From assembly GCA_046351555.1 (NCBI GenBank), contig JAXLYI010000006.1, forward strand, positions 1 to 58,283: DNA of 58,283 nucleotides, read 5' to 3'. The notes beneath the pieces were generated by a model that had not been told where the DNA came from, did not search any database, and saw nothing but the letters and a program-made list of their open reading frames with translations. Every line of letters starts with the position of its first letter. Position 1 is the first letter of the stretch. The translations under genes were made by a program, and so were the position numbers. Of the stretch, positions 9,395 to 55,512 are shown one piece after another. The stretch is from Polyangiales bacterium. GTDB taxonomy: Bacteria; Myxococcota_A; Polyangia; Polyangiales; Ga0077539.

Positions 9395-9478
9395 TGCGAG
9401 CGAAAGGACTTGAACCTTCACGAGTGTTACCCCACTGGAACCTGAATCCAGCGCGTCTGCCAATTCCGCCACGCTCGC
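9395..9478 (-). tRNA. tRNA-Leu (anticodon CAG)
   Basis: Reverse complement reads GCGAGCGTGGCGGAATTGGCAGACGCGCTGGATTCAGGTTCCAGTGGGGTAACACTCGTGAAGGTTCAAGTCCTTTCGCTCGCA. The 7-bp acceptor stem GCGAGCG/CGCTCGC, anticodon stem-loop CTGGA-TTCAGGT-TCCAG, long variable arm and T-loop GGTTCAAGTCC are all present. Confidence 0.85.
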
Positions 9479-11596: not shown

Positions 11597-11682
11597 GGTT
11601 CGCGGGCGACCATACCACCGCCCGGGCGCGCGGAAAGGGGGCGTTGCGGGCGCCGGCGCGGGCGACGAAACTCATCGCCGCC

Positions 11683-23987: not shown

Positions 23988-26900
23988 TCAGAGCGCCCCA
24001 CGCGCCGCGTCGCGCACGGCTGCGTCGACGTCCTCGCGGGCCGCCCGCTCCAGCGCCGCCCGCACCGCCGGGTCGCCCGCCCGCCCCGCGAGCGAGCGCG
24101 CCGCCGCCGCCCGCACGAGCGAGAGCCTGTCGGTCGCGAGCGCGCGGGTGAGCGCCTCCACCGCGTCGTTGCCGCCGCCGTGGGCGAGGGCCTGCGCCGC
24201 ACGGAGCCGCGCCTCCCAGGGGGCCTCCGCGTCGAGGTGGCGCGCGACGCTCGCGGGGGCGTCGCCGTCGCCGCGCGAGGCCAGGGCCGCGAGCGCGTCC
24301 TCCGCGACGGAGGGGTCGTCGTCGCCCGCCGCGCGCGCCAGGGCCGCGGCCGCCTCGGGCGCGTCGCTCGCCGCGAGCACCGCCAGCGCGCGCCGCCGCA
24401 CGGCCACATCCGTGTGGGTCACCAGCCCCGCCAGCGACGGCGCCAGCGAACGAACCAGCGCGCGGGCCGCGGCCTCGCCCTCGGCGGACACCGCCGGCGC
24501 GTCCCCCGTGAGCGGGCCGAAGCGACCGGGGACCGCGAGCGCGTCGAGCACCCGGTCGACGCCCGCGGGCGACGCGAGCGCGGCGCGGGCGGCCTCGGCG
24601 ACGCGCGGCCCGTAACGCACCAGCGCGGCCTCGCCCCCGGCCAGCGGGCCCGGCGGCGCGATCACGCGGGCGAGCATCACGCCCGCCGACGCGGCGGCCT
24701 CGGGGTCGTCGAGCGCGCCCGGGCCCGACGTCTCGTCGCCCGACGCGAAGGCCGCGAGCCCGTGCGCGGCGACGCGTCGGAGCGGGAGGTCGCCGCCCAC
24801 CTGGCGCACGACCATCGGCGAGAAGAGCCCCGCCGCGAGGTCGTCGACGGCGCGATCGCGCAGGGCCGCGGGCACGCGTCCGAGCGCCGCGAGCGCCGCC
24901 GCGCGCGACCACTCGCCGTCGAGCAGCGACGCGCGGAAGCGGGTGACGAGCGCGGCGTCGGCGGTGGGGGCGAGCGCGAGCATCGCCGCGGTGGGGAGCC
25001 AGAGGTCGTTGCGCGCGTCGAGCGCGGACCGCAGCGCGGCGCGGGCGGCGGGGGCGCGGGCGCCGGTGAGCGCGAGCGCGGCCATCGCGGCGACCTCGGG
25101 CTGCGTGCGCTGGGCGACGAGGGCCGTGAGCGCGGCGGGCGAGGCGGGGGCGCGGGCGCGTCCGACGCCCCAGGCGGCGATCGTCGCGAGCGTCGGGTCG
25201 GTGCCGCGGGCGAGCGCGACGAGCCGCGGGAGCGCGCGCCCGTCGGCCACCGCGGCGGCGGCGCGGAGCGCGTCGATGCGGACCTCGTGGGGGGCGGTCC
25301 CCTCGGCGACGGTGAGGAGGGCCGCGGCCGCGTTGGGGTTGCCGAGGTACCCGAGGATCTCCAGCGACACGCGCCGCCGGGCCTCGTCGTTGTCGGCGAG
25401 GGTGTCGAGCAGGGGCTTGAGCGCGCGGGCCCCCATGCGGGTGAGCTCGGCGCGGGCGCGCGCGCGGGCCTCGGCGTCGCCGTGGCGGAGCGCGTGGACG
25501 AGCGGGCGGCACGTGGCGGCGTAGAGGTCGACGAGCAGGCGGCGGAGCACCACGCGGGCGGGCGACGCGGCGGAGGCGGCGGAGAGGTCGCGCTCGAGGT
25601 CGGGGAGGGCGCCGGCGGCGGGCGCGATCTGGATGGCGAGACGTCCCGCGCGGGCGACGAGCTCGTCGTCGGGCGCGAGGCGGATCACCCGGCGGAAGAG
25701 CTCGACGGCCTCGCGCGACTCGTCGCGCGCGAGGTCGAGGTCGGCGAGCTGGAAGTACGTCGGGAAGAGCCGGTCGTTGAGCGCCAGCGCCCGGCGGAAC
25801 GACGCCGCCGCCTGCCCCGCGTCGTTGCGCGCCCGGTAGAGCTCGCCGAGGCGCAGGTGCCCGTTGGCGTCGTCGGGGTTGAGCTCCACCGCGCGGGCGG
25901 CGCTCTCCAGGGCCTCGGCGTCGCGGTGGAGCGCGAGCGCGTGGGCCGCGAGCCGCTGGTGCCACTCGCGCGCGTGCCGGGGGTCGGCCTCGACCAGCCG
26001 CCGCAGCACGTCGATCGCGCCCGCGAGGTCGCCGCGCTGCGTGCGCATCCGCTCGAGCACCGAGAGCGTGGTGACGTCGCCGGGCTCGGCCTCGACCAAT
26101 CGCACGAGCACGCGCTCGGCGTCGTCGAGCCGGCGCGTGCGGGCGTAGGCCTCGGCGAGGTCGCGGCCGGCTTCGAGGTCGGGCGGCGTGGCGGAGAACG
26201 CACGCTCCAGGGCGGGGATGCGCTCGGCGAGGCGGTCGGTGAGGTTCCAGAGGTTGACGATGCGGGCGCGGGCCTCGCGGCGGAGCTCGCGGTCGTCGCG
26301 GGAGAGCTCGATGACGCGGCGCCACGCGGCGATGGCGGGGTCGAACATCCGCAGCGCCTCGGCCACCACCGCGAGCCCCTTGTGGTACTCGAGCTCGTCG
26401 GGGCGCGCGTCGATCGCCTCGCGGTAGAGCGCCATCGCCTGCGGGCCCATGTCGTGGCGCGCGTACACCTCGGCGAGGGCCGCGGCGCCGCGGGCCCGGT
26501 CGCGCGCCCGCTCGCGGATGCGGGCCCACGTGGCGAGGGCGCGGTCGCGGTCGCCGGCCTCCATCTGCCGCTCGCCGAGGGCCTCCAATGCGGCCGGGTC
26601 GGAGGGGTCGTAGCGCGCGACGAGCTCGGTCTCACGGAGCGCGGCGGCCTGCTCACCCAACCGGGCGTACGCCTGGGCGAGGCGCTCGTGCATGTCGACG
26701 TCGGCGCCGGCCCGCGCGCTGGCCTGCGCGAGCGCGGCGAGGGCCTCGGCGCGGCGGCCGGCGCGCACGAGGTCGTCGGCGAGGTCGGTGACGTAGGTCG
26801 GGTTGCGCGGCGCGGCGGCGGCGAGACGTCTCCGCGCGGCGACGAGCTCTTCGAAGCGGGCGCTCTGCGCGAGGAGCTGGACGAGCTGGACGAGCGCGTC

Positions 26901-28073
26901 GACGTCCCCGGGGCGCAGCGCGGCGGCGCGGCGGTAGGCGGCGACGGCCTGGTCGGCGCGGCCCTGCTCGGCGTGGAGGCGGCCGAGGAGCATCTGGCGC
27001 TCCCAGCTCCCCGCACCCTGGCGCGCGAGCTCCTGGATCCATCCGTCGAGGTCGCGGCGGCGCGTGTGGAGCTCGGTGAGGTCGTCGAGGAGCTCGCGGC
27101 GCACGCCCGTCCCCGCGCCCGCGAGGGCGAGCGCGCGGCGGAAGGTGGCGAGCGCCTCGTCGAGCTGGTTGGCCTGCATCTGCGCGCGGCCGAGGTCGCG
27201 TAGCACCGGCGGCAGCACCCGGTTGTCCCCCGCCAGCGCCCGCGTCAGCGCCTGGAACTCCCCGATCGCCTCCGCATACAACCGCCGCGCGACGAGGGCG
27301 TCGGCGAGCTCGCGGCGCACCGAGGCGCTCGCGGGCGACGCGGCGACGAGGCGCTGGTGCCACGACCGCGCGCGGGCGACGTCGCCCGAGGCGAGCGAGA
27401 GGTCGACGAGCGCGCGCAGGACGTCGCCGCGGCGGTCGGCGCGGAGCCCGAGGCCGAGGGCGCGCTCGTAGGCGGCGAGGGCGTCGGGGGCGCGGCCCAT
27501 CTGGCGGAGCGTGTCGGCGAGGGCGAGCTGCGGGGCGGGCGCGTTGGGCGCGGCGGCGGCGGCGCGCTGGTAGCGGGCGACGGCCTCGTCGAGGCGCCCG
27601 TTCTGCCGCTGGACGTGCCCGAGGAGGAGGAGCGCCCCGACCGCGTCGGCGCCCGGCGCGGCGGCGCGGCGCTCGAGGTCGGCGGTGAGGGCGTCGAGGT
27701 TGCCGTCGCGCTCGCGAACGAGTCGGAGCAGCGTGGGGAGGGCGACGGCGTTCTCGTCGTCGCCGCGGAGGAGCACCGCGAGGAGGTGCTCGATCATGCG
27801 GCGGTTGCGGTCGGTGTCGCTCGCGGGCGCGGCGGTCGGCGGGGCGCTCGGGGGCGGCGGCGCGGGCTGCGCGGTGGGCGCGGGGCGCGTCGGGCGCACG
27901 GGGGATGGGCGTACGGGACCGGGGCGCACAGGGCCGGGGCGTGCGGGGCGCGACGGGCGGGCCGGGCGCGAAGGGCGGGCGGGGCCGACGTCCCAGTCCT
28001 GCGCGGCGGCCGGCGGGGCGGCGAGCGCGAGGGCGACGAGCGCGAGGGCCGTGGGGAGCGGGCGTCGGGTCAT
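23988..28073 (-). CDS. Secreted giant TPR/HEAT-repeat protein
   Basis: Signal peptide MTRRPLPTALALVALALAAPPAAAQ. A Pro-rich region, then more than 25 TPR-like repeats and C-terminal HEAT/PBS-lyase-like repeats (VRRRALAVLAASDAPEA...). 1362 aa. Confidence 0.75.
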   Translation of the reverse strand: MTRRPLPTALALVALALAAPPAAAQDWDVGPARPSRPARPSRPARPGPVRPGPVRPSPVRPTRPAPTAQPAPPPPSAPPTAAPASDTDRNRRMIEHLLAVLLRGDDENAVALPTLLRLVRERDGNLDALTADLERRAAAPGADAVGALLLLGHVQRQNGRLDEAVARYQRAAAAAPNAPAPQLALADTLRQMGRAPDALAAYERALGLGLRADRRGDVLRALVDLSLASGDVARARSWHQRLVAASPASASVRRELADALVARRLYAEAIGEFQALTRALAGDNRVLPPVLRDLGRAQMQANQLDEALATFRRALALAGAGTGVRRELLDDLTELHTRRRDLDGWIQELARQGAGSWERQMLLGRLHAEQGRADQAVAAYRRAAALRPGDVDALVQLVQLLAQSARFEELVAARRRLAAAAPRNPTYVTDLADDLVRAGRRAEALAALAQASARAGADVDMHERLAQAYARLGEQAAALRETELVARYDPSDPAALEALGERQMEAGDRDRALATWARIRERARDRARGAAALAEVYARHDMGPQAMALYREAIDARPDELEYHKGLAVVAEALRMFDPAIAAWRRVIELSRDDRELRREARARIVNLWNLTDRLAERIPALERAFSATPPDLEAGRDLAEAYARTRRLDDAERVLVRLVEAEPGDVTTLSVLERMRTQRGDLAGAIDVLRRLVEADPRHAREWHQRLAAHALALHRDAEALESAARAVELNPDDANGHLRLGELYRARNDAGQAAASFRRALALNDRLFPTYFQLADLDLARDESREAVELFRRVIRLAPDDELVARAGRLAIQIAPAAGALPDLERDLSAASAASPARVVLRRLLVDLYAATCRPLVHALRHGDAEARARARAELTRMGARALKPLLDTLADNDEARRRVSLEILGYLGNPNAAAALLTVAEGTAPHEVRIDALRAAAAVADGRALPRLVALARGTDPTLATIAAWGVGRARAPASPAALTALVAQRTQPEVAAMAALALTGARAPAARAALRSALDARNDLWLPTAAMLALAPTADAALVTRFRASLLDGEWSRAAALAALGRVPAALRDRAVDDLAAGLFSPMVVRQVGGDLPLRRVAAHGLAAFASGDETSGPGALDDPEAAASAGVMLARVIAPPGPLAGGEAALVRYGPRVAEAARAALASPAGVDRVLDALAVPGRFGPLTGDAPAVSAEGEAAARALVRSLAPSLAGLVTHTDVAVRRRALAVLAASDAPEAAAALARAAGDDDPSVAEDALAALASRGDGDAPASVARHLDAEAPWEARLRAAQALAHGGGNDAVEALTRALATDRLSLVRAAAARSLAGRAGDPAVRAALERAAREDVDAAVRDAARGAL

Positions 28074-28346
28074 CGTTCGCCGCGGAGGATAGCCTACGGC
28101 GGAGGTGCGGGGCGAACCCGTGGGACGTGTCGTTGGTTTCACGCCGGCCTTGAAAACCCGTCGGGCGCCGTCGCCCGGGGAGAGCCTCGGCCACGATGCC
28201 GGAGCACGTCGGGCGAACCCTGGCGACGGCTTCCCGCACGAACGATCCCTCCGTCGGGATCACGTCGGCGGAATCGGACGAGTCGCCCTCAACCACCCAC
28301 GGCTTCGCGCGATCCGCCGGTGTTTCGCCGCACCGTCGCCTTCGCG

Positions 28347-28431
28347 ACCGCCGGGGACGCGGGACGTCGCCGACGTCTCGCCCTCGCGGCCGCCGGGGAC
28401 GCGGGACGTCGCCGACGTCTCGCCTTCGCCC
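28347..28431. repeat. Two direct tandem copies of a ~42-nt unit in the intergenic region upstream of the TPR gene
   Basis: Reads GACCGCCGGGGACGCGGGACGTCGCCGACGTCTCGCC(C/T)TCGC twice in succession. Confidence 0.6.
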
Positions 28432-41822: not shown

Positions 41823-42860
41823 TCAGCGCCGCACGTGGTTCACGCCGTCCTGCGTGAAGCCCGAGAACGGCAGGCACGTCTGCGTCGCCGCGAAGCCCGG
41901 CGCGAGGCGAAACTGCACGCACGTCGCCCGGTCAGGCCACGACACCACCGACGCCTGGCCGCCGCCCCAGAGGGTCCCGCGGTCGAAGCCGTTCCAGCGG
42001 GCCTGGGCGTCGAAGACGAGGCTGTCCTGGTGCCACCCGCCGCCCGCGTCGGTGTAGAGCCCCGAGGCCCACTCGCCGGAGTTGAAGCCCCAGTTGGTGA
42101 GCAGCTCGCCGAGCGTGAAGCGGTTGGCCGTCACGGTGAAGGTGGCCCCGCTCGCCACGCTCGACGCGAGCTCGAGGTGCGACGGCGGGATCGACACCGG
42201 CGCCCCCGCGTCGCAGAAGCCCAGCACCGCGCCGACCGCGAACGCGCCGGGCATCACGTTGACGTCGACCGACGCGCCGGGCGCGAGCGGGTTGGCGCAC
42301 GAGCGAACCTGCGCGCCGTTCACCACGAGCGAGACGACGTCGTACTGGTTGCTGTTGACGACGCGGACGCGCGTCGGCGGCGGCGGGGGCGGGGGCAGCG
42401 GCACCACGAAGTCCGCCGGGCTCTCGGCGAAGCTCCCGAGCGCGTCGGAGAAGCGCACGCGGCCCGTCGCGGCGCCCGCGGGCACCGTCACCGCGAGCTC
42501 GGTCGACGACACGAGCTGCGGGCCCGCCGCGGCGACGCGCGCGCCGCCGGCGCCCGCGAAGGTCACCGCGTACCCGACGCCGACAGAAAGGCGCCCGGTG
42601 CGGCTGCGGTCGAGCCAGGCGCCGCGGATCGTGATGCGCGCGCCCGCGGCGGCGCTCGACGGCGTGAAGCCCGTGATGGTGGGGCGCGCGACCTGGAGCT
42701 GGAGGTCGTTGAGGTTGCCGACGGTGGTGATGGGGGCGACGGCGTAGGTGAGCGCCTGCGCGGCGGAGGCGACAGGCGCGTCGCCTTCGGGCGCGTCGGG
42801 CGCACCGGCACAGCCGAGGGAGAGGGAGAGGGCGGCGAGGAGGAGGCGCTTGTGGTTCAT
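41823..42860 (-). CDS. Lipoprotein with an IPT/TIG-like beta-sandwich domain
   Basis: Lipobox LSLSLGCAG. TIG-like segment PTITGFTPSSAAAGARITIRGAWL. A poly-Pro linker. Confidence 0.6.
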   Translation of the reverse strand: MNHKRLLLAALSLSLGCAGAPDAPEGDAPVASAAQALTYAVAPITTVGNLNDLQLQVARPTITGFTPSSAAAGARITIRGAWLDRSRTGRLSVGVGYAVTFAGAGGARVAAAGPQLVSSTELAVTVPAGAATGRVRFSDALGSFAESPADFVVPLPPPPPPPTRVRVVNSNQYDVVSLVVNGAQVRSCANPLAPGASVDVNVMPGAFAVGAVLGFCDAGAPVSIPPSHLELASSVASGATFTVTANRFTLGELLTNWGFNSGEWASGLYTDAGGGWHQDSLVFDAQARWNGFDRGTLWGGGQASVVSWPDRATCVQFRLAPGFAATQTCLPFSGFTQDGVNHVRR

Positions 42861-42974
42861 GCCTCCGCTCATCGCAGCGGGCGTGCCGCGCGGGATTCCG
42901 GGGACTCCGCGCGCGGAGCGTCGGGCGCGGCGGACAGGGGCCCGCGCGGGGGTGTCGGGCGGAGCGGACAGGGG

Positions 42975-44030
42975 TCAGCGCCCGCGCGCGCAGGCCCCGC
43001 AGGCAAAGCGCCCCTGGGCGTGGGGCACGCAGCGCTCGCACGCGAGGTGGAGCCGGTCGTCGCAGAGGGCCGGCCGCGCCGTCGCGCCCCCGCAGAGCTC
43101 GCAGGCCAGCAGGTCGAGCGCCTGCGCCCCCGCCGGGAGCGTCACCCGCAGCTCGCGCTCGGCCTTGCGCCGCCGCAGCCGCAAGCGCACGCGCACCGCC
43201 GGCAGGAGCGCCCCCACCATCGCCACCGGGGCGGCCTCCACCTTCGGCGTGTACCGCAGCACCACGTCGCGCAGCCGCGCGTCGCGCTCGGCGACGACCG
43301 CGGCCGCGCGCGCCGCGAGGGCCGCGGCGTCCACCTTGCGCCGCCCCGCGCCCAGCTCCGCCACCAGGCCGGCGAAGTACTCCGTCATGCGCGCGTGGTC
43401 GCGCGCGTGGCGCCGCTCGATCGCCGCCAGCGGCTCCGCGGTCGCCGCCTCCAGCGCGGCGCGCACGCGCGCCGGCAGCGCGGCCGTGAGCGGCGCGAAG
43501 TCACCCGCCGCGGGGCGGAGCCCGCCGACGCCGCGCGCCGGGTCGAGCAGGGCCGTGACGCGCGCCTCGGGCTCGCCCCCGTCGGGGCCCACCGCCACGT
43601 CGAAGGCGCCCTCGTAGCGGTCGTCGGCCTCCACCGACCAGCCCACCGTCGCGCGGAGGTACGGCGCCTCCAGCGACGCCGCGTCGACGACGTCGGCGAG
43701 CCCGTTGCGCACCACCAGCCGCGCGGCCAGCGAGGTCGCCTGCGACGCCTTCGGCGCGTCGACCTCGGGCGCCGCCACCGCCCACGGCACCCCCGCCCGC
43801 GCCGACACGGTGAGCGCCTCGAGCAGCGGCGACCCGATGCCGCACGCGACGGCTGCGCCGTCGGCCGGCGACGCCGCGAGCGCCACCTCCTCGGGCAGCG
43901 CGAGGGCCCTCGCAAGCTCGGCCGGCAGGAGCGCCTCGACGCGGCCCTCGCGCGCGTCCACCAGGGCCCCGCGCGCGGCGAGGGCGCGGGCGGCGAAGTC
44001 GAGCGGGTCGGGGAGGTCGGCGGCGCTCAC
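42975..44030 (-). CDS. Hypothetical protein with a C-terminal Cys-rich zinc-ribbon, translationally coupled to the SNF2 helicase
   Basis: GTG start overlaps the helicase TGA stop (GTGA). C-terminus reads LLACELCGG...ALCDDRLHLACERCVPHAQGRFACGAC, with CxxC pairs. Confidence 0.6.
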   Translation of the reverse strand: MSAADLPDPLDFAARALAARGALVDAREGRVEALLPAELARALALPEEVALAASPADGAAVACGIGSPLLEALTVSARAGVPWAVAAPEVDAPKASQATSLAARLVVRNGLADVVDAASLEAPYLRATVGWSVEADDRYEGAFDVAVGPDGGEPEARVTALLDPARGVGGLRPAAGDFAPLTAALPARVRAALEAATAEPLAAIERRHARDHARMTEYFAGLVAELGAGRRKVDAAALAARAAAVVAERDARLRDVVLRYTPKVEAAPVAMVGALLPAVRVRLRLRRRKAERELRVTLPAGAQALDLLACELCGGATARPALCDDRLHLACERCVPHAQGRFACGACARGR

Positions 44031-46708
44031 GCTTCGAAGTCCCCCCCGAAGAGCGCCTCGTCGAGGCTGCGGGTCTTCTCGTAGCGGCCTCGGGCGGCGA
44101 GGAGCTCGGCGGCGAGGCGGTCGAAGGTCGCGTCGACCTCGGCGTCGGTCTTCGCGCGGGCCACCGACTGGACGAGCCAGTCCTCGAGGTCGCGCTCCTC
44201 GGCGAGGTTGCCGAGCACCATGTCCATCTCGCCCACCACGAGCTGGAAGAGCTGCACGCGGCGGTCGAGCACGTCGAGGACGCGCTCCTCGATCGTGTCC
44301 TTCGAACAGAGGTTGTAGACGTGCACCTCGCGGGTCTGCCCCATGCGGTGCAGGCGGCCGATGCGCTGCTCGATGGCCATGGGGTTCCAGGGGAGGTCGT
44401 AGTTGACGAGGACGTTGCAGTGCTGGAGGTTGTGGCCCTCGCTGCCGGCCGCGGTGGCGACCATCACCACGGCCCCGCCCGCGCGGAAGCGCTCGAGCGC
44501 CGCGGCCTTCTCCCGCGCGTCGAGCCCGCCGTGGAAGGCCACCGCCGCCACGCCCGCCCGCTCCACCGCCGCCACCACCTCGTCGAGCGTCTCGCGGTAC
44601 CGCGTGAACACCAGCGCCGGCTCGCGCCGCGCCGCCACCACCTGGAGGAGCGCCGCCGCCTTGCCCGACGCGCCCGCCGCCGTGGCGAGCCGCTCGATCA
44701 CCCCGAGCTTCTCGCGGACCTCCTTCTTGTCCGCCCCCTTCGCCTTCTCGCGCATCCGGGCGACGGTGGCCCGCACCGCGCGCGGCGACGAGCCCGCCTC
44801 CAGCAGCAGCGACGTGGCCGCGAGCTGGAGCCCCGCGTCCTCGTGGTGGATCCGCACGAAGGCCAGCACCATCGCGTAGAGCGCGCGCTCGTCGTCGGAC
44901 ATCGGCACGGCGACGGTGGTGACGAAGCGCGGCGGCAGCGCGAGGCCCGACTGGGCGCGGGTGTTGCGCACCATCACCTCGGCGAGCAGCGCGCGGAGGG
45001 CCTCGCGGTCCTTCGGGCGCGTCGGGTCCTTCGGGTCGACGAAGCGCTTGCGGAAGGCCGCCGGCGTGTCGAACTGCCCGGGCCGCAGCAGCGTGACGAG
45101 GTTGTAGATCTCCTCCAGGTCGTTCTCCACCGGCGTCGCCGTGACCAGGAGGAGGAAGCGCTGCTTGAGCCCGACGACGAGCTTGTAGCCCATGGTCGCG
45201 CGGTTCTTGATGTGGTGCGCCTCGTCGACGATCACCACGTCCCAGGGGTGCGCCTGCACCACCGGCGCGTGGCGCGCGGCGCGCGCGAGGGAGAGCGACG
45301 CCACCACCACCCCGGGCCCCGACCAGAAGCCCTCCGGGTCGTCCTTCGCGCGCGGGTCGTCGGTGGTGCGGGCGGCCACCCCCGCCTTCTGCGCGAGCTC
45401 CCCGGCCCACTGCGGCACCAGCGACGCCGGGGCGAGCACCAGCGCGCGCCGGGCCATGCCCCGCACCTGGTACTCGCGCAGCACCATCATCGCCTCCACC
45501 GTCTTCCCGAGGCCCACCTCGTCGGCCAGGATCCCTCGGCCCCGCAGCGCGCGCAGCACGCGCCGCACCGTCTCCGTCTGGTAGCGGTGCGGGACGACGT
45601 CGCGCATCGTCGCCACCGCCAGCAGCTCGTCGAACTGCGCCGCCGACGCGAGCCGTTGCGCGTCGAGCGCCAGCGCCACCGCGCCGAGCGGCGACGGCGG
45701 CGACGCCAGCACCGCGGCGAAGCGGGCGACGTCCAACGTCGGCAGCGCGCGGGCCGCGGGCGCGAAGGCCGGCGCCTCCGGGAGTGAAGGCGCGGCGGGG
45801 GCCTTCGGCGCAGCGGGCGCGGGCGCGGCGGGAGCGGGCGCAGCGGAAGCCACGGGTGCGGCGGAAGCGGCGGGCGCAGCGGAAGCCACGGGCGGGCGGC
45901 GCACAAGCAGGTCCCGCACCTCGCGGCGCTGGAGGAGCTCGCGCACGCGCCGCTCGAGGAGGGCCTTCGGCAGCCGCCCGAACTCCCCCGCCGGCAGCCG
46001 CGCGAAGGAGGCCGCGTCGCGCACCGACTGGGCGATCCGCTCGGCGAGGCGCGCGGGGTTGTTCACCGCGAGGCCCGCGTCGGCGAGGACGGCGACCGCC
46101 TTCTCCGCGGTGAGCCGGTGGGGCTTGCAGAGCGCCATCGCGGCGGCCAGCAGGTCGCTGCCGGTGAGGTGATCGGCGGCGTGGCGGGCGCCGAGCAGCG
46201 CCCGGAGCGTCGCGTCGTCGTCCGCGGGGGGCGGCTCCGTGGGCGGGGCCTTCGCGCGGCGCGACGGTGCCTTCACCCGTTCGGGCGTTGGGATGGGGAG
46301 CACCGGCATCCCCGCCGCCCCCCGCACGAGCGAGTGCCCGCGCGCGAGCGGGTCGACCGCGGCGGCCTTCACCTCCCAATAGCGCCGCTCGTACTCGCCC
46401 GCCCGCGCCGGGTCGTCGACGATCTGCGCGCGGAGCGCCATCAGCCAGAGCGCCGCGTCGGGGCCCTGTTGGAGGTCGACGGCGAGGGCGGTCTGGGGGC
46501 GACCGTGGGGCGGCCGGGCAAAGAAGTGCTCGACGCCAGCGTGCTGCTGGTTGTCCTCGGTCGACCGCGCGACGAGCGCGACGCGCCGGCAGTCGCACTC
46601 GGGGAGCGGGCAGTAGAAGTCGAAGACGTGGGCGACGCCGACGTCCGGGAGCGTGACGGAGATGGACCAGCCCCGCGGGTCGAGGCGCTGCCACGCGATC
46701 AGCGACAC
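44027..46708 (-). CDS. SNF2-family (RapA/HepA-like) DNA-dependent ATPase/helicase with a ~340-aa uncharacterised N-terminal region
   Basis: Motif I ADEVGLGKTVEAM, motif II VVIVDEAHHIKN, motif III LLLVTATPVEN, and helicase-C motifs VATAAGSEGHNLQ and QRIGRLHRMGQ. Confidence 0.85.
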   Translation of the reverse strand: MSLIAWQRLDPRGWSISVTLPDVGVAHVFDFYCPLPECDCRRVALVARSTEDNQQHAGVEHFFARPPHGRPQTALAVDLQQGPDAALWLMALRAQIVDDPARAGEYERRYWEVKAAAVDPLARGHSLVRGAAGMPVLPIPTPERVKAPSRRAKAPPTEPPPADDDATLRALLGARHAADHLTGSDLLAAAMALCKPHRLTAEKAVAVLADAGLAVNNPARLAERIAQSVRDAASFARLPAGEFGRLPKALLERRVRELLQRREVRDLLVRRPPVASAAPAASAAPVASAAPAPAAPAPAAPKAPAAPSLPEAPAFAPAARALPTLDVARFAAVLASPPSPLGAVALALDAQRLASAAQFDELLAVATMRDVVPHRYQTETVRRVLRALRGRGILADEVGLGKTVEAMMVLREYQVRGMARRALVLAPASLVPQWAGELAQKAGVAARTTDDPRAKDDPEGFWSGPGVVVASLSLARAARHAPVVQAHPWDVVIVDEAHHIKNRATMGYKLVVGLKQRFLLLVTATPVENDLEEIYNLVTLLRPGQFDTPAAFRKRFVDPKDPTRPKDREALRALLAEVMVRNTRAQSGLALPPRFVTTVAVPMSDDERALYAMVLAFVRIHHEDAGLQLAATSLLLEAGSSPRAVRATVARMREKAKGADKKEVREKLGVIERLATAAGASGKAAALLQVVAARREPALVFTRYRETLDEVVAAVERAGVAAVAFHGGLDAREKAAALERFRAGGAVVMVATAAGSEGHNLQHCNVLVNYDLPWNPMAIEQRIGRLHRMGQTREVHVYNLCSKDTIEERVLDVLDRRVQLFQLVVGEMDMVLGNLAEERDLEDWLVQSVARAKTDAEVDATFDRLAAELLAARGRYEKTRSLDEALFGGDFEA

Positions 46709-46776
46709 GCGTCAACCGCTACCACACCCCCAACCGGCGCCGCGAACCGAAACGGGAGGCGATCCCTGAGGCGCTC

Positions 46777-46960
46777 TGCGCCGACCCCGTGTCACGGGGC
46801 GACCGGTTCCGGGAGCGGTCCGCGCCGACCCCACCCCACCGGGCGACCGGTCCCGGGAGCGGTCTGCACCGACCCCGTCTCATGGATCGACCGGTTCCGG
46901 GAGTGGTTCGCGCCGACCCTGACCATCGCGCGACCGGTTCCGGGAGCGGTCGGCCGATGG
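46777..46960. repeat. Tandem array of about 4.5 copies of a 44-nt unit carrying the hairpin GACCG-GTTCCGGGAG-CGGTC, immediately upstream of the SNF2 gene
   Basis: Units begin at 46799, 46843, 46887 and 46930, with a partial unit before 46799. A ~33-nt conserved core CGACCGGTTCCGGGAGCGGTCYGCRCCGACCCY is followed by ~11 variable nt. Confidence 0.65.
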
Positions 46961-47099
46961 GAGCGTCAGCGCGATACCCACCCCGCCCGTCCCACCGCAG
47001 TGCGGGTTGACCGTCTGGCACCCCGGCGCCTCCAACGAGCACTCGGCAAACCGCTGCGCGTGAGTCGGCCGTGGGAAGGTGGGGACGCCTCGATGGGCC

Positions 47100-47245
47100 G
47101 GTCGTCGGGGTTCTCCAGCGCGACCCCCGCGGCGACGAACCGGTAGGACGGTGAAGCGCCGCACCGTCTCCCGCGTGTTGGGCGCGTACACCTTCCCGTA
47201 GCTCCGCTCGGAAGCATCATCGGCGTGATCCCCATGCAGGGCGAG
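47100..47245 (-). pseudogene. Roughly 140-bp fragment duplicating an internal 3'-region segment of the methyltransferase gene (copy of 51476-51615)
   Basis: About 95% nucleotide identity to 51476-51615. Translates to ERSYGKVYAPNTRETVRRFTV...FVAAGVALENPDDR, the same peptide as in the methyltransferase C-terminal region. Confidence 0.6.
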
Positions 47246-47319
47246 CGCACCAAAATCGCTTGAATTGCAGCCTCGCGGCGGGGTTGCCAGTTGCAGCCCA
47301 TGGGGCCACCCCAGACGCA

Positions 47320-50300
47320 GGGTCATGGGGCCGGGGAGAGGCGAGGCGTCACCCGTTGGTAACCCGGAGACGCCGCCTCGGCGTCGAGGGCCTCGAGGAG
47401 GGGCGCGGAGCGACCCGACGACGTCTCTTGCTGGATCATGGGGCCACCTCGGTGACGTCGGCGACGACGATCCCGGTGTTGCTCCTCGCCGCCAACGTCG
47501 CCAAGTTCGATCTCGCGACGACGCGCGCGAGGGTGCGAGTGCACCTTCGGCTGCGGCGCGCTCGGCGGCGGCGACGTTACGTTCGGCTTCTGCCGCGGGC
47601 AGGTACGTCTCGCCGTCATCGAAGTCGAACGCCGTTCTTCACAGGTCCACCGCGCTCTGCGCCAGCGCACGTCGTCGAACATCGCCAGACCCGCCTCTTC
47701 CTCCTGCTCATCGACGCGCGCGAAGTCGTCGATGATCAGCAGGTCCACCGACGACAGCGACGCCATCTCCGCGTCCCGCGAGTTGTCCAGCCGGCTCTGC
47801 CGCAGGCGCCGCAGCATCGCGTCGGCGCGCCGAAGCACCTGGTAGCCGTAGCGGAGACGCCATCCGCGAGATGCTTCGGCGCGAGGGCTCGCCAGCTCGC
47901 TCAGCACGCGCGCCTCGTAGGAGACCTTCTTCGTCCCACGCCTCCGGCGCATGCCCGGGTCGAGCCCGGCCTCGCGGCGCGCAGCCGCGCCCGACTCGCG
48001 GCGCGAGACCCGTCGCTCAGATCGTCAGCAGCACGTCCTCGACGGCCATGTCCTTCTCGGCGCCGTGAGGCCGCCTGGGCGCGCGTACGATCAAGCGTCC
48101 CAGCCGCAGCCGCTTGAGCACCGAGACCGCTCGGGCAAGAGGGCGCGCGGCGTCATCGCGGGTCCCCCTTGCGCTCGCTCGACGCGCCGGTGCGGAAGTG
48201 CTCAGCCGACCTCGCGAAGCGCGGGCGGAGCGCCACCACCTGCCGTCGCGCCGGCCGGCGTGCCCGGCGCCTGGGCCTGCTTGAGCATGCGGCCGAGCCG
48301 CGTGACGTCCACCACGTTCGAAGGCGAGCGCGTTGGAGACGCTCGACGCGCCCTGTCGCCGTGGGCGTCGCACAGCGCATCGAGCGTACGCCTGGCGCAT
48401 GCGCGTCCACGGCAGGGCCCTCCGACACCGCTCGGCGTACCGCCGATGTGGTCGCCGCGTCGGCGCGCCCTCGCATGCACCGCGTCGACGCTAGCACGCG
48501 AAGTCCGCCTTGCCCTCGGGTAGTCAGCGCGGTCGTCGTGCGCTTGCCGGCGCGGTGCGGACGTGCGCCTTGATCAGCTCGTGCCGAGGTACGCGGACGT
48601 CGTGCGGTCGACACCCGCACCGACTGGCCGATCTAGCGAGACCACCTCGCTCTGGAGGCTCCCTGCTGGAGATGCCGGACCGCGCGGATCGCCGCGCGGT
48701 CGCCGGGAAGGCGGGTGAGCTGCTGAGCAAGCACTCGCGGCGCGCGCTCGGCGCGCCGCGTCGATCGAGGCGATCGTCGCCTGCGCGCGCGACACGATGG
48801 GCGTCGCGCAGGCCCCGGCTGGAGGGCAGGGCGCGGGTACGGCACGTCGTGTCCGAGATGCTCCGGCACCGCGAGAGGTCGGGAGGTCGACCAGCGTAAG
48901 CTCCGCGCGCTGCTGGAGTCGCGCCCCGAGCTCGGCGCGATGGCGCGGTGGGTGGGGCTGGTGACGACCGGGGTGCTCCTCGGCCGTCGGCGACCCGCTC
49001 GACTTCCACCACGCGGGCGCCTACGAGAGGAAGGCGTGCGGGCTCAACCCCTCAAGGGCACGACAACGGCACGGCCGCGCGCGGCGGGGCTTCATCACCC
49101 GCGCGGCTCCGCGTGCGCGCGCGCAAGTACCTGGCCACGTATTCCAGTGCTGCGGTGGAAGGCCGCGACCGCGCGACATGCGCCTGAGTCGAGCGCCGCC
49201 GGAGCTGGCGCGCAAGGGCAAGGTCTCCGCGCTGGTGGCGCTGATGCGCAAGGCCGTCAAGCGCGCCCTCTGGCACCTGCGCCGTGGGCAGGACTACGAG
49301 GCGGGCAAGCTCTTCGATCTGCGTCGACTCACGCTCACGCCCCGGCGCGAGGCCACGCTCATCACCGAGTCCGACGCGGGCGGCGGTACCGTGCCCGCCG
49401 ACGCACGACGATGCGACGACGACGGCGCCCGCGCGCGATGGCGCGTCGGGCGCGGCGGCCGCGTCCGGAGGCGACGGCGACTAACGCGACGAAGGCCACG
49501 ACGAAGGCCGCGACGAAGGCGGCGACGAAGGCCACGACGAAGATCCGCGACGGGCGACGACGCCGCGGCGGTGAGGCCGCGCGCGACGACGCATCGAAGG
49601 CGACGCGCGCGCACGCGAAGCGCGAGGCCCGGGGCGGCAAGCGACGGGGATCGCGCGAGGAGCCGACGGCGCGGCACCGGAACGCGGGCCGCGTGCGGGC
49701 GCGTTCGATGGCGCCGCCCCGGGCGCTGCTTCGGCAGGCGCTGGGGCGCATCGCCCGCAGCCGCGGGAGCAGGTCGTCGCCCGCCCTCGTCGGCCGCGTC
49801 ACTCATCTGCCCGAGGTCGTGCGGGGTGACGACGGCGTCGCGCACGTGCTCGCCGAAGCGAACGGGCGTCGGCACGGGGGCCGGCGGCGCTGGCGCCGTG
49901 CTCGCACAGCAGGCCCAGCGCGCCGGGGTCGTCGGTGCCGCGGCGTCCCGGCCACCGCCTCGCGCAGCGCCTCGGCGCCTAGAGGTCGAGCGCCACGATG
50001 GAGCGCGCCACGGCGTTGCCCAGGTTGCGCCCGGCGTCGAGCCAGCGCGCCAGCTCGCGTCGATGCCGGGCGCCTCGGCGCGCAGCCGGTCGCGCCCCTT
50101 GAGCCCCTGGCCGCGCGGCGCTCGGCCACCAGCTCGGCGCGGTGCTCGCGTGCTCGGAACGACCGTCGGCGGCCCCAGGATCGCGCGTGCGGGCGACCTC
50201 CGTACGCGCCGTCCAACAGCTGCACGCGCGCGTCGTCGGCGGCCATCGTCAGTGCGGCCCGCCCACGCCGGCGGCACCGGTAGAGGTTGGTGTCGAGCCG

Positions 50301-51130
50301 CGCGAAGGCCGTCCGGTCGATCGCCACGGGCACGACCTGCTCGGGCGGGGCATCGGGTCGGGCAGCGCCAGCAGCTTCGTGCGCCCTCGGCGAAGGCGCC
50401 GACGGTGCGATCGGGCAGGCGCGGGTGGGGCCGCCGGCGCCACCTCGCGCAGGAACTCCCCGAGCTCGCGGTTGCCCTGCGCCACGTCGCGATCGCGCCT
50501 GCCAGGAAGCGGTCGCGACAGGTAGCGACATCGCGCGCTCCACGCGGCCTTCTCCGCGTGCGCCCGCACCGTGCAGAGCCGCGCCTGCGTGCAGAAGGCC
50601 GCGGAGAGCTCGACCACCGCGGGGTGGAAGCCGCGCCTCAGCACCGGTGCGCGGGTTGTCGAAGAGCCACTGCCGCGGCGACCCTCCGAAGAAGGCGTGG
50701 CGCGGATCGGGAGCGGCGCAGCGAGGCGCGTCGGTCCCAGACGCACTCGGCGAAGAGCATCCGCGACCAGGAGAGCACCATCACGAAGAGCCACAGCCCG
50801 CGGCGCCCGCGGCCTCGCCGCCGACGAAGGCCAGTCGACCTGCGCCTGCTCGCCGACGAGGGTCTCGGTGCGCAGGAAGGCGCCCGCGGCGAGGCTGGCG
50901 CGCCGCGCGACGCCCCGCAGCGTGCGCACCGAGCCCTTGTAGCGGGGCGAGCATGTCGGCCGCGGCGCGCAGCGGTAGCGCGCCGGTCTGCGCGATGCCG
51001 AAGGACTCGCTCCCGATCCACGCGCAGAGTCGAGGACAGCGCGCCGGCGTCGACGCGAGGGCGCCGACGCGCGAAGAGCGTGTCGGGACCTTCATGCGCC
51101 CGAACGGGCGCGAAGGCACTCAACGCGGCG
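47320..51130 (-). mobile_element. Heavily degraded IS21-family element (istA transposase and istB helper remnants with many frameshifts), plus ~1.7 kb of unassignable decayed sequence
   Basis: IstB-like remnant at 47323-47952 (LRRLRQS...VDLLIIDDFARVDEQEEEAGLAMFDDV). IstA-like remnants between about 49800 and 51120 in different frames (LVGEQAQVDWP; LFVMVLSWSRMLFAE; LDTNLYRCRRRGRAALTMAADDARVQLL). No intact ORF. Confidence 0.5.
49486..49542. repeat. 12-nt tandem repeat (GCGACGAAGGCC-like), about 4.75 copies
   Basis: Reads GCGACGAAGGCCACGACGAAGGCCGCGACGAAGGCGGCGACGAAGGCCACGACGAAG. Confidence 0.7.
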
Positions 51131-51218
51131 CGCGGATTTTTCGAGGCTCTGCCGATTCCTACTTGCCTATGACAGCGCACGGGCTCTACCTCCCGCACGA
51201 ACCATCCCCCCGTCAGGA

Positions 51219-53344
51219 TCAGTACGGCCCGAGGAAGCGCTCGCCGTTGAAGTGTATCATGTGGGTCGGGGCGTCGGCGCACCACACCTCGGTAAGCACC
51301 GGCACCCGCGACATCTCCCGCTCCTTCGCGTAGCGGGCGCGGAGCGTCTCCACCGTGGCCAGCCACCGCGCGAGCGCGCCGCTCCAACGCGCCGTCCCAT
51401 AGCGTTGGAGCACGGCGAGCACCCCCGGCTCGATCTGGTAGACCGCCTTGGGGCTGTTGGTCGGGCGCGACCGGTCGTCGGGGTTCTCCAGCGCGACCCC
51501 CGCGGCGACGAACCGGTGGACGGTGAAGCGCCGCACCGTCTCCCGCGTGTTGGGCGCGTACACCTTCCCGTAGCTCCGCTCGAAGAACTGCATCATCGGC
51601 GTGATCCCCATGAGCGGCGCCGACGCCTCCGCCCAGGGACGCTCCGCCGTCAGGTCGACGAGCGCGAGGAGCGTGAGCGCCGACCGCTCGTTCTGCTGCT
51701 CGCGCGGCAGTCCGATGGCCTCCAACACGGACAGGGCCTCGTCGATGCGACGCCTCGCCGCCACCGGGTCGATGGCCGTTGGTTTCTTGTCTCCCATACG
51801 AAACAACACCTCGTCCACGGCGCGATCGACCGCCCCTTGCGTGGCGAGCGACTTCCCCGCGGCATCGCCGAGCGCCTCGAGCTGTGCGCGGGTCGGGTAC
51901 GGCATCTTGCGGAGGTCGGTCGCGTTCACCTGCGTGTGCCCGCTCCAGGCGCGGAAATGCGCGTCGACGAGCGTCGAGTTGAGCCACACCGTCAGCCCGC
52001 GCGCGAGCCGCTCGGGCACCCCAGCGCCGTCGCAATGGAACACGTTGAGGTGGTTTTCGAACCCGACGCGCCCCCGCGCGACCGCCGCCGGTTCGTAGAG
52101 GGCGGCGACGATGCGGCGCGGCTCCTCCTTCGAGGAGAAGCGCTTCGTCAAGACGTAGGTGCCCTCCGGCAGCAGGAGGGCGGCGGTCTCCGCGTTGTCG
52201 TCGATCGCGTTGGGCTTGCGCGATCCCTCGCGCGGCCACGCCACCCCTCCGCCCGCGAGGTGCAGCGGGTAGATGAGCGGGGCCGTGGTGCGCGCCGGTC
52301 GGTCGTGGAGGTGGGCGCGGGCGCGGAAGTCCACCACGCGGCCGGTCGACGCCTGGAGCCCGAGGTCGGCGAGCGTCGAGCGGAACGTCGCCATCCGCTC
52401 GCTCACGGCGCCGCCGAGTCCGTCGGACACGATGTGGACGATGCGTTCGGGGTCGTCGGGTCGCACGACCTCCGCGAAGGGAACCTCCCGCACGAGCGGC
52501 GCAGGGTCCTCGGGGCAGGTCGCCGACGAGACCGTGACGCGCCCGCGCGGCGCCCCGTCCTTCACCGCGTGGAAGATCACGGTCTCCTGGAGCACGTCGT
52601 CGTCGGCGAAGGCGCGGTCACGCCGCTCGAAGACGTGGAGCCGCAGGAGCCTCATGCGCGCGAGGAAGCGCTCGCGGAAGGGGCGGAAGTAGGGGCCGTT
52701 GCAGAAGCTCCGCGGGGTGATGGCGACCAAGCTCGCCGCCGGGCTCGAGCAGGTCGACCGCGACCGCGAGGAAGGCCGTGTGGAGGTTGCTCGTCTCGAG
52801 GCCGATCCGCTGGAGCGCGCGCCTCGGGCGAGTCCGCGCGGATCTTGTGTTACGGCGGGTTGAGGATCGCGGCGTTGAAGGCGCCTCGCTGCGTCGCGAA
52901 GAGGCCGCCGTCGAGCGCGCCCACCCCCGAGGCGATGAAGTTTTCGACGTGGACCCGGGCCTCGACCCGGAGGCCGGCGGCCGCGCCGTGCTCCTCGCAC
53001 GCGGTGAGCGTCTCGCGCAGGTACCGCGCGAGCGTCGGGTCGACCTCCCACGCGTCGACCGTGATGGATGTCGGGCGCGCGGGACGTCCGGCGAACGCCT
53101 CGACGGCAGCGGCGGTGAGTGCGCCGACACCAGCGCCCGCGTCGAGCAGGCGGACCTCCGCCGCGTCGGTTCGCAGGAGCGATGCCATGAACGACGCCAC
53201 CGCCGCGGGGGTCATGTACTGCCCGAGCTCGGCCCGCCGCGCCGGGGAGAGCTGGCGCATGGCGTCGACGCGCGCCACGTCGGCGACCTCGCCGGGGTGG
53301 CGGCCCGATGCGAGGAGGGAGGTGGCGAAGCCGGGTTTGCGCAT
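51219..53344 (-). pseudogene. Eco57I-family (gamma-class, NPPY) N6-adenine DNA methyltransferase, inactivated by an in-frame TAA and two frameshifts
   Basis: Motif I LLDAGAGVGAL and motif IV FNAAILNPP are followed directly by TAA. The downstream conserved blocks KIRADSPEARA / ALQRIGLETSNLHTAFLAVAVDLLEPGGEL / VAITPRSFCNGPYFRPFRERFL sit in three different frames. The junctions imply an indel in a GCGCGC run and a 1-nt insertion. Confidence 0.65.
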
Positions 53345-53407
53345 GGGGAGCGGCCGAGGCGCACGCTGCCCGAGGCGGGGCCGCGGGTCAACGGATCGGC
53401 GCGCCCC

Positions 53408-54451
53408 TCACCAGGTGTCGGGGAAGTTGCCGCGCGACATCGGCTGCGGCGGCGGCTTCGGCACGGCGACCGCGTCGGCGGCCTTCTTGCGGATCACCTG
53501 CGTCCCCTCCTGCTTGAGCGTCTTGATGGGGCCCTTCACCCACGAGCCCGGGCCCGACACCGCGCCGATCGCGCCCTGCACGCCGTCGCCGATCTTCTGC
53601 CCCATCTCGGGCGACGCGCCGAGGTACTCCGCGCCCGCGCCGATCGCCTGCGACGTGTACGTGCGCTGCGGCACGCCCGTCCAGATCTGCTTCACCGCGG
53701 CCCAGCCCCGGTCGCCCGCGTTGGCGATGAGCGCGCCGCCCGCCACCTGCCCGACGCCCGTCGGCGTCGACGCGAGCCCGACGCCCACCGTCCCCTGCCC
53801 CACCGCGCCCGCGAGGTCGATGCCGCCCGCGACGCGCGGGTACGCCGCGCGGAAGTCCTGGTAGCGCCCCCACGTCTGCCGCATCCCGTACTGCGCCAGC
53901 GACTCGTTGGGACGGCGCGCGAACGACGACGGCTCCTGCGCCGGCTGCTGCGGCTGCGCGGGCTGCTCAGGGGGCTGCGCCGCGGCCTGCTCCTGCGGCG
54001 TCTCGGGCTTCGGCTCGGGGTTCGGGTCGCTCTTCGGCTTGCCGTCCTCGCCGACCTCGTTGGTGGGCTCCGTCCCCTCGTCGAACACCGCCTTGCCCTT
54101 GGTGTTCTTGTCGTTCATCTCGTGCTCGTCCTTGTGACGAATCACGTTCTGGCCCTCGGCGCGCACCGTGGGGGAGTGCTCGACGGGCTCGGTCTTGCCG
54201 CCGCCCGCGTGGGTGCCCGACACCACGCCCTCGCCCGTGCCGCCCTCGTCGCCCTCGACGCCCTGGATGTAGCTCTGCTTCGTGAAGACGCACTGGTTGG
54301 TGGCCCGCACCGTCGGCGTCACCATGCAGGCGTTCTGGTACACCGACACGATCTGGTAGGGCACCGGCGCCGTCGGCGACTTGCAGACGTCGGGGTAGCT
54401 GCTCACGACGAGCGCGCGGGGCGTCTTGCGGGTGAGTTCGAGCTCGCTCAC
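53408..54451 (-). CDS. T6SS PAAR-like (DUF4150) effector with a Pro/Glu/Gln-rich linker and a glycine-zipper-rich C-terminal domain
   Basis: N-terminal DUF4150 pattern YPDVCKSP...GDEGGTGEGVVSGTHAGGGKTEPVEHSPTVRAEGQNVIRHKDEHEMNDKN. C-terminal GxxxG-rich segment (AGAVGQGTVGVGLA, GVGQVAGGALIANAG, AIGAGAEYLGA, GDGVQGAIGAVSG). Confidence 0.7.
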   Translation of the reverse strand: MSELELTRKTPRALVVSSYPDVCKSPTAPVPYQIVSVYQNACMVTPTVRATNQCVFTKQSYIQGVEGDEGGTGEGVVSGTHAGGGKTEPVEHSPTVRAEGQNVIRHKDEHEMNDKNTKGKAVFDEGTEPTNEVGEDGKPKSDPNPEPKPETPQEQAAAQPPEQPAQPQQPAQEPSSFARRPNESLAQYGMRQTWGRYQDFRAAYPRVAGGIDLAGAVGQGTVGVGLASTPTGVGQVAGGALIANAGDRGWAAVKQIWTGVPQRTYTSQAIGAGAEYLGASPEMGQKIGDGVQGAIGAVSGPGSWVKGPIKTLKQEGTQVIRKKAADAVAVPKPPPQPMSRGNFPDTW

Positions 54452-55476
54452 AGCGGGGCCTCCTGCTGGTCGGGGTCGTTGAAGTGCATGCGCAGCTCGG
54501 CCACGCGCACCGCGGGCTCCTCACGCACGGTCAACCGCGAGGTGACGTAGACGAGGCGCCGCGCGAGGTCGATCACCACGGTGTCGAGCTCCATCGGGCG
54601 CATCTCGATCTCGCCCGACTCGTAGCGGAGCAGCGTGAACATCCCGTGGCCCGGCAGCCGGCAGCGCAGCGGCCCCTCGGGGAGCAGGCCCTCGAGCGCG
54701 ATGTCGGCGTCGCTGCGGAGCATCCCGCGCACGGTGAGGTCGGGGTGCGCGCCGTTCCAGTACTCCGAGCGGAAGTCCTTCGGGAGCACGGGCCAGGTGT
54801 GCTTCACCCACGCCTCGTCGTAGGTGCCTGCGAGCGCGAGGCGCGGCGCCCACGCGCGCCCGATGGGGCCGTAGCCCACCGGGGCGGGCTCGGCGAAGGG
54901 GTCGGTGAGGGGCGCGTCGGCCGACTCGATGCGCGGGGCTTCGAAGCGGTCGACGTCCTCCACCGACCAGGGGCGCGCGAAGCCCACGCCCACGGGGTTG
55001 CTCGCGCACGCCTCCTCGCGGTCGCCGCGGCGCGCGACGCCGCCGTGCGCGAGCTCGTAGCAGAGCGGGACGCGGTCGACGGGCTCCGGGTCGGTGAGCC
55101 GCCACGCCTCGCCCTCGCGCACCCACCAGCGTGGGCCCGTGACGCGCAGACGCTTCTCCACCGGACCCACGCGCACGAGCGTCTCCCACGACGGGAGCGC
55201 CTCGCCGTTGGGCGCGCAGGCGTCGCCCACCACCGTCACGTCGGTGAAGGGCTTGTAGGGCGCGAGGTCGCTCTCGAACACCGGGCTCGACGCGCCGGGC
55301 TCGCCGCGGAACACCTCCGCGGTCTGGAGGGGCGTCTGCTCGCGCGCGAGGCGCAGCACCTTGCCGTGCTCCAGGCGCAGCGTCATGCGGCTGACCACGA
55401 CGTGGAAGGGTTCGTCGTCGACGGTGTGCGACTCGAACACCAGCATCGGGAAGGGCGTGTGGTTGCGGGGCCTCAC
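54448..55476 (-). CDS. DUF2169-family T6SS adaptor protein
   Basis: 342-aa protein whose stop overlaps the DUF4150 effector start by 4 nt. Size, position and sequence feel match DUF2169 adaptors that pair with DUF4150 effectors. Confidence 0.6.
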   Translation of the reverse strand: MRPRNHTPFPMLVFESHTVDDEPFHVVVSRMTLRLEHGKVLRLAREQTPLQTAEVFRGEPGASSPVFESDLAPYKPFTDVTVVGDACAPNGEALPSWETLVRVGPVEKRLRVTGPRWWVREGEAWRLTDPEPVDRVPLCYELAHGGVARRGDREEACASNPVGVGFARPWSVEDVDRFEAPRIESADAPLTDPFAEPAPVGYGPIGRAWAPRLALAGTYDEAWVKHTWPVLPKDFRSEYWNGAHPDLTVRGMLRSDADIALEGLLPEGPLRCRLPGHGMFTLLRYESGEIEMRPMELDTVVIDLARRLVYVTSRLTVREEPAVRVAELRMHFNDPDQQEAPL

Positions 55477-55512
55477 GACGTCGAGGCTACCGCAGGGCAG
55501 ACGCGACGGGGA

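Follow-up and report, generated by a model that had tools for sequence, protein, structure and literature searches.

The window analysed here, a stretch of 58,283 bp from a Polyangiales bacterium, carries a 44-nt unit repeated head to tail in front of a gene for an SNF2-family helicase, which raises the question of what kind of element this is and whether it serves the gene behind it. The array was found to be a non-coding 44-bp minisatellite located at a synteny break. It was seen in this lineage alone and originated when a single unit was duplicated head to tail in a spacer of about 400 nt. It is an intergenic minisatellite, a known kind of element, and possibly an operator array.

Layout of the array

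Tandem Repeats Finder placed the array at 46771-46951, with a period of 44, 4.1 copies, 77% matches and a score of 208. The 21-nt core CGACCGGTTCCGGGAGCGGTC starts at 46800, 46844, 46888 and 46931, with 0, 1, 2 and 0 mismatches respectively; the successive starts are 44, 44 and 43 nt apart, and all four cores share one strand in direct orientation. When the whole 58,283-bp window was searched with up to two mismatches allowed, these four copies were found against 0.02 expected, four or more were present in 0 of 100 shuffles, and no further copy was detected outside the array. This established that the tandem array described in the first-pass annotation is real, intergenic and upstream of the SNF2 helicase gene. 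The period of 43-44 nt given there was retained, while the count of four full units and one partial unit was replaced by three complete units (U1-U3, 46800-46930), a fourth reduced to its core and a decayed copy at the near edge, so both array edges carry degraded copies (U0 and U4). The units, to which no strand is assigned, are as follows.

46756-46799, U0: decayed edge copy (register alignment, pairwise identities, repeat search), retaining the box CTGCGCCGACCCC, the linker GTGTCACGGGG and 9-12 of the 21 core positions
46800-46843, U1: full 44-nt unit with core CGACCGGTTCCGGGAGCGGTC, box CGCGCCGACCCC and linker ACCCCACCGGG
46844-46887, U2: full 44-nt unit whose core carries a T>C change, giving a near-perfect 20-bp palindrome, GACCGGTCCC/GGGAGCGGTC
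46888-46930, U3: 43-nt unit with TGGTT as the 3' arm of the core (two C>T changes)
46931-46951, U4: core alone, identical to the U1 core, the match to the unit being lost beyond it

The GC content is 75% for the window and 0.73-0.74 across the array region. By codon position it was 0.72-0.75 in all frames of the array, compared with about 0.95 at third positions in the genes here; the array is non-coding. A small protein encoded across it was rejected on the basis of this flat profile, a period that is not a multiple of 3 and the fact that no gene was called there in a second allele of the locus (L129, see below). By reading the sequence, 0 CTGCAG sites, the recognition site of the neighbouring PstI-family enzyme, were counted in the array.

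Conservation inside the unit

The units could be divided into three parts, which differ in their identity between units.

21-nt core: 86-100% identity
12-nt box: 75-92% identity
11-nt linker: 36-64% identity

The cores differ from one another at no more than 3 of 21 positions, and one 11-nt window holds 8 of the 14 variable columns (permutation p = 0.04, from the three full units). The division into a conserved core and about 11 variable nucleotides proposed earlier was thereby upheld, although the contrast is modest. As read from the alignment, the substitutions among U1-U3 were all transitions in the core and box and included many transversions in the linker, which suggests that there have been few recent changes in the former. 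The U1 and U4 cores are identical despite being non-adjacent and separated by 131 nt. The contrast between core and linker is real, if modest, and hints at constraint on the core. Since the linkers are still recognisably related, it was whole units that were duplicated, and the array did not grow by insertion of 33-nt elements.

The core is near-palindromic over 20 bp, with 9 of 10 pairs in U2; a palindrome of such quality is expected by chance in about 9% of 44-nt units at 75% GC (binomial estimate). The inverted repeat GACCG-N10-CGGTC, which had been assigned to each unit, was exact in three of them, the 3' arm of U3 being TGGTT. Chance alone would give 0.74 such sites per window, and the three exact ones all derive from a single unit; by itself the motif is not beyond chance.

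The SNF2 helicase gene

The gene behind the array was annotated as follows.

44027-46708, minus strand: SNF2-family helicase, 893 aa, downstream of the array (Pfam SNF2-rel_dom and Helicase_C)

The GTG start at 46708 was confirmed, because an in-frame stop lies just upstream and the N-terminus, MSLIAWQRLD...DFYCPLPECDCR, is kept in orthologues. With this start codon the array lies 69-252 nt upstream of the gene, in good agreement with the earlier estimate of 70-250 nt, and the gene-proximal unit ends 92 nt ahead of the start codon. A conserved cysteine motif, DFYCPLPDCDCR, is present in the N-terminus. The protein is 100% identical to the NCBI entry 'MAG: DEAD/DEAH box helicase [Polyangiales bacterium]', which places the window in a metagenome-assembled genome of Polyangiales (Myxococcota). 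Its scores fell well short of the curated cut-offs for DrmD, RapA, DpdE and ZorD (NCBIfam, PADLOC), so it is regarded as a generic SNF2 protein and not as a recognised defence helicase.

Orthologues of the helicase are common across Polyangiales and Sorangium, at identities of 42-75%. A conserved gene of about 350 aa directly follows the helicase gene in 5 of 5 orthologous loci (65-75% identity), and, judging from this gene order, the two genes are a conserved pair. Their stop and start codons overlap in the window (41823-46708) and in the loci L121, L122 and L126. The protein of about 350 aa received no family assignment and shows a weak TIG domain.

The native locus and its insertion

The surroundings of the array were clarified by comparison with L129, an ENA metagenome contig of 8,162 bp whose helicase is the same and whose sequence matches the window at 99.75% identity. 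According to the blastn junctions, L129 joins window position 51174 straight to 47064; the sequence across the join is CGTGCGCT|CACGCGCAG, where 2 nt overlap. The window therefore has a 4,109-bp insertion relative to the L129 allele. The features upstream of the helicase gene are listed below.

46709-47064, no strand: native non-coding spacer with the array (L129 alignment; no codon-position GC signal)
47065-51173, minus strand: 4,109-bp decayed IS21-like insertion, absent from L129 (blastn junctions)
47098-47243, minus strand: near-exact direct copy, about 145 bp, of 51471-51619 (the HTH piece of the restriction gene), inside the insertion
51219-53344, minus strand: decayed fused methyltransferase and BsuBI/PstI-type restriction gene (Pfam, homologues, tblastn, PADLOC MTase_II and REase_II)

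In the insertion-free allele the spacer runs directly from 47064 into 51174-51218. The native setting of the array is thus a spacer of about 400 nt between two same-strand genes, namely the restriction-gene remnant and the SNF2 gene. The array is base-for-base identical with and without the insertion, the 20 differences that separate the two alleles all falling elsewhere, and the junction at 47064/47065 is 104 nt outside it. The possibility that the array represents terminal binding sites of the IS21-like element was rejected on the basis of this junction and of the unchanged array in the insertion-free allele.

The insertion showed a blastn match to an IS21-family istA (76% identity, E = 1e-7) and a weak match to IstB at 47323-47952, with an E value of 2e-4 and a score that does not reach the curated cut-off. 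No intact reading frame was found within it, 20 stop-free stretches gave 0 Pfam matches and the GC content was flat across codon positions. Decayed as it is, the insertion still varies in presence within an almost clonal population; it was therefore either mobilised in trans or lost by deletion. The "adjacent rearrangements" mentioned in the first-pass annotation correspond to this insertion of 4,109 bp with its copy of about 145 bp of the restriction gene. The copy differs from its source by 1-nt and 4-nt indels and occupies one end of the inserted segment, at a distance of about 4.37 kb from 51471-51619; possible origins are an IS-mediated duplication and a capture of flanking DNA. A 12-nt tandem repeat, CGACGAAGGCCA, is also present inside the insertion at 49487-49542 (4.7 copies, 90% matches).

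On the other side of the insertion, the restriction gene was found to carry a frameshift near 52825 and to have lost about 110 aa of the nuclease core by deletion, while its natural C-terminus and stop codon are retained. Its relatives are fusions of about 840 aa, made of an Eco57I-type methyltransferase and a BsuBI/PstI-type endonuclease, and the methyltransferase part and HTH domain of the pseudogene are 77% identical to a full-length homologue (P0122). By these similarities, the native upstream neighbour of the array is a decayed restriction-modification gene. The full-length homologues occupy unrelated neighbourhoods; none was found beside an SNF2 gene and none had such an array downstream. 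Derivation of the array from the nuclease domain that this gene has lost was dismissed as well, because the gene keeps its C-terminus and stop and the tblastn alignment that runs into the array is noise due to composition.

Further genes around the locus are chromosomal housekeeping genes, e.g. those for malate synthase and isocitrate lyase. Between the latter two and the restriction-gene remnant, at 53408-55512, a Tox-PAAR-like domain protein and a DUF2169 protein are encoded. Both kinds of protein are associated with type VI secretion.

Distribution of the array

The array was absent upstream of the SNF2 orthologues with 65-75% identity (L121, L122-L125, L126), and the genes upstream of these orthologues all differ. 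When the spacer was compared with the orthologous upstream regions, nothing was obtained by blastn, and tblastx returned compositional noise alone. No copy of the core or the array was present in about 130 kb of related Polyangiales loci, and within 58 kb the palindrome was not found upstream of any other gene. Searches of plasmid, phage and viral-contig collections gave nothing similar to the array, and the translated array had no match among 5.8 billion protein clusters. A search of the literature on myxobacterial intergenic tandem repeats found nothing relevant.

Two larger scans returned matches of a different kind. With a 19-nt degenerate core as the query, which is too short for a collection of 596 Gb, at least 120 single matches were found in unrelated, mostly GC-rich taxa; among the matches listed, none was tandem and none matched the longer unit. 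A metagenome scan for two cores 41-46 nt apart returned the tandem repeats L127 (42 nt, 2 copies) and L128 (42 nt, 9.8 copies). These were not accepted as kin of the array and were judged to be chance, the common part being the searched 13-mer alone. In L128 the repeat (1046-1458) consists of about 10 copies of a 42-nt unit with the palindrome TCTCCCGG-YC-CCGGGAGA and lies upstream of a small lysine/alanine-rich ORF. Over all the sequence read, the distribution argues for a single, local array seen in this lineage only.

Protein-binding sites or a neutral repeat

The question of whether the array has been kept for a purpose was addressed by weighing two main explanations. We tentatively propose that it has been kept as a phased row of predicted protein-binding sites, while recognising that this falls somewhat short of being probable. 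Each unit would consist of a 20-bp imperfect palindrome, GACCGGTYCCGGGAGCGGTC, and the adjoining GCGCCGACCCC box, and the palindrome matches in length the operator of a dimeric DNA-binding protein. Core and box appear to change slowly and the 11-nt linker fast, and the period of 44 bp, about four helix turns, would put successive sites on roughly one face of the DNA. The array is placed where activator or repressor sites of an SNF2 promoter would be expected. Several copies of one putative regulator may bind cooperatively and set the transcription of the SNF2 gene and of the conserved gene of about 350 aa downstream of it. The slower evolution of the core relative to the linker, the four-turn phasing and the position upstream of the SNF2 gene are the reasons for favouring predicted binding sites. 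F-plasmid sopC, in which 43-bp direct repeats each contain an inverted-repeat protein site (PMC3177203), is an established precedent for this architecture.

Regulator binding sites had been listed among several roles in the first-pass annotation; on sequence grounds an operator array is a plausible functional reading, and the most plausible one. Operator arrays for dimeric regulators resemble the array in having palindromic cores of about 20 bp, helically phased and within 250 nt upstream of a start. They differ from it in that the array has no known cognate regulator and is not conserved in orthologous promoters, and four near-identical tandem units made by duplication would be unusual for them. 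The proposal is weakened by the absence of the array at the orthologues, whose upstream genes differ. It is also weakened because no further copy of the palindrome was found upstream of any other gene in the 58 kb, no regulator gene adjoins the array and no sigma-70-like promoter was found by a simple scan. Between the array and the start codon a poor TGG-N10-GC match for sigma-54, alone, was noted by eye. In addition, the chance of about 9% for the palindrome and a p value of 0.04 obtained from three full units weaken the proposal, as do unrelated intergenic arrays of 42-44 nt at 28336-28429 of the window and in L122.

Alternatively, the array could be a neutral minisatellite, generated by slippage or unequal exchange in a relaxed spacer and without function, in which case the contrast between core and linker would be due to chance or local gene conversion. 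This explanation is of the same tentative standing, and almost as likely as a row of binding sites. It would account for an array that is seen in this lineage only and absent from orthologous loci, for its location in a region that is decaying and rearranged, and for the decay of the copies at either edge, a feature of old tandem arrays. Unrelated arrays of similar period (window 28336-28429; L122 3946-4107) point the same way, and replication slippage may routinely produce intergenic arrays of 42-44 nt in these genomes. No signal from structure, sequence family or neighbouring genes was found. Its head-to-tail unit within 10-100 bp, non-coding nature, degraded edges, occurrence, as far as seen, in one lineage and lack of a sequence family are typical of bacterial minisatellites and VNTRs. 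In contrast, its substitutions are concentrated in the 11-nt linker and not evenly spread. A neutral origin does not readily explain identities of 86-100% in the core against 36-64% in the linker, the clustering of the variable columns (p = 0.04) or the identity of the non-adjacent U1 and U4 cores. The copy number is equal in the two alleles compared, i.e. the window and L129.

Comparison with known repeat systems

The architecture of the array recalls the centromere of the F plasmid. As described in PMC3177203, sopC consists of a 43-bp unit repeated directly 12 times, and SopB binds a 16-bp inverted repeat in every copy. The likeness to that description extends to the period (44 versus 43 bp) and to direct repeats with an inverted-repeat core and less conserved DNA between the cores (PMC3177203). 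Unlike sopC, the array is chromosomal, has about 4 units, shows no sequence similarity and has no sopA/sopB or parA/parB nearby. Since partition genes are absent here, sopC is taken as an analogy and not as a family to which the array belongs.

A bolder version of the binding-site proposal, which we consider unlikely, follows from this analogy: a chromosomal, sopC-like phased nucleation site. Its 4-5 palindromes of 20 bp at four-turn spacing would seed a higher-order complex of a putative DNA-binding protein that controls the conserved myxobacterial SNF2 operon or, acting as a boundary, shields it from the decaying restriction-modification and IS region upstream, and the arrays of 42-44 bp and unrelated sequence in Polyangiales (window 28336-28429, L122 3946-4107) would reflect a recurrent route to such sites by local duplication.

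A relic of a mobile or extrachromosomal element, in the form of a sopC-type centromere, iterons or a transposon end with several transposase-binding sites, left with the restriction-modification cassette, seems quite unlikely. It would fit the sopC-like arrangement of 43-bp direct repeats, each with an inverted repeat, and a synteny break beside horizontally mobile genes, namely a cassette that occurs in unrelated contexts and the IS21-like insertion. The native locus, however, was without parA/parB, rep, transposase or integrase genes; no rep, ParA or ParB family was found in the window and no transposase or integrase gene belonging to the native locus was detected. The full-length homologues of the cassette are likewise without an array downstream, the plasmid, phage and viral collections were empty in this respect, and the array lies outside the insertion, 104 nt from its junction. 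Plasmid iterons are direct repeats of 17-22 bp with a spacing of about 22 bp, beside a rep gene and an AT-rich region. The array has a period of 44, not about 22, a GC content of 0.73-0.74, no rep gene and no AT-rich region, and the suggestion that its units are iterons was dropped for these reasons.

Structured RNA is considered very unlikely. The array would then act as hairpins in the 5' leader of the SNF2 transcript (minus strand) or in an antisense RNA (plus strand), affecting translation or stability or binding an RNA-binding protein. The helicase-sense RNA of 46709-47000 folded no better than its shuffles (z = 0.04), and the single units gave a different structure each, with z from 0 to +1.3 as RNA and from -2.7 to +1.35 as DNA. 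For the antisense RNA of the same region the fold was slightly better than that of the shuffles (z = -2.0; 3 of 200 shuffles). RNAalifold proposed a plus-strand hairpin for four units, in which the box GCCGACCCC is paired to the 3' half of the core. Four single substitutions retain pairing in this consensus as G-U or A-U, and GGA can be read within the 10-nt loop on both strands. No compensatory pairs were found in the consensus hairpin, however, and its covariation was not above that of shuffles, 245-375 of 500 being equally good. Rfam gave no match to the array at the gathering threshold or at E = 10, and simple scans found neither promoter nor terminator signals. The tandem hairpins or structured leader suggested earlier are unsupported, because z is about 0 for the helicase-sense transcript, compensatory pairs are absent and covariation does not exceed that of shuffles.

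A dispersed REP/BIME-like element, or a recombination hotspot driving the nearby rearrangements, is highly improbable: although each unit has an imperfect palindrome, intergenic, short, GC-rich and between co-directional genes as in REP/BIME elements, and an insertion polymorphism is found 104 nt away, the units are all direct and not alternating, no RAYT gene is nearby, neither the 58-kb window nor some 130 kb of related Polyangiales sequence contains another copy, the genome-collection matches listed were single, from unrelated taxa and not tandem, the translated search was empty, and the sole rearrangement, the 4.1-kb insertion, has its breakpoint outside an array that is identical in both alleles.

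CRISPR arrays consist of near-identical repeats of 23-50 nt and unrelated spacers of about 26-72 nt. A partly palindromic "repeat" of 33 nt alternating with variable "spacers" at a fixed period gives the present array a superficial likeness to them. Its spacers, however, are 11 nt long and mutually homologous (36-64%) and its repeats are not identical; a scan of about 37 ORFs from the whole 58-kb window, together with the stop-free stretches within 46883-53387, found no cas gene. A CRISPR array was ruled out by the spacer length, the heterogeneity of the repeats and the absence of cas genes, in line with the earlier remark that the spacers are too short.

Significance

Should the array work as a binding platform, it would illustrate a regulatory region assembled in the recent past from tandem copies of one operator, and it would offer a way into the regulation of the uncharacterised SNF2 helicase operon that is conserved in Polyangiales and Sorangium. 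As a neutral minisatellite, it could serve as a strain-typing marker, and it would be a caution that partly palindromic tandem repeats in very GC-rich genomes mimic hairpins, iterons and mini-CRISPRs by eye. On either reading no long-standing question is opened.

Other repeats and genes

A second non-coding tandem repeat was observed in the window at 28336-28429 (42 nt, 2.2 copies, 94% matches). With the palindrome GACGTCG-C-CGACGTC in its sequence, it is found a short distance upstream of a gene for a 1,423-aa TPR/HEAT-repeat protein (23988-28259, minus strand). In the related Polyangiales locus L122, and also in L124, an intergenic array of 44 nt and 3.7 copies (L122 3946-4107; 95% matches) is located about 120 nt upstream of a gene for a protein of 228 aa. 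Its sequence is unrelated to that of the array at 46771-46951, with a unit made of GACG-N10-CGTC followed by TGCGCA-N2-TGCGCA, while its period and two-palindrome layout match.

Elsewhere in the window, a tRNA gene (9395-9478, minus strand) adjoins a gene (9527-11671) whose 715-aa product has a BREX BrxC/BrxD ATPase domain (Pfam E = 3e-23); together they may mark the edge of a defence island.
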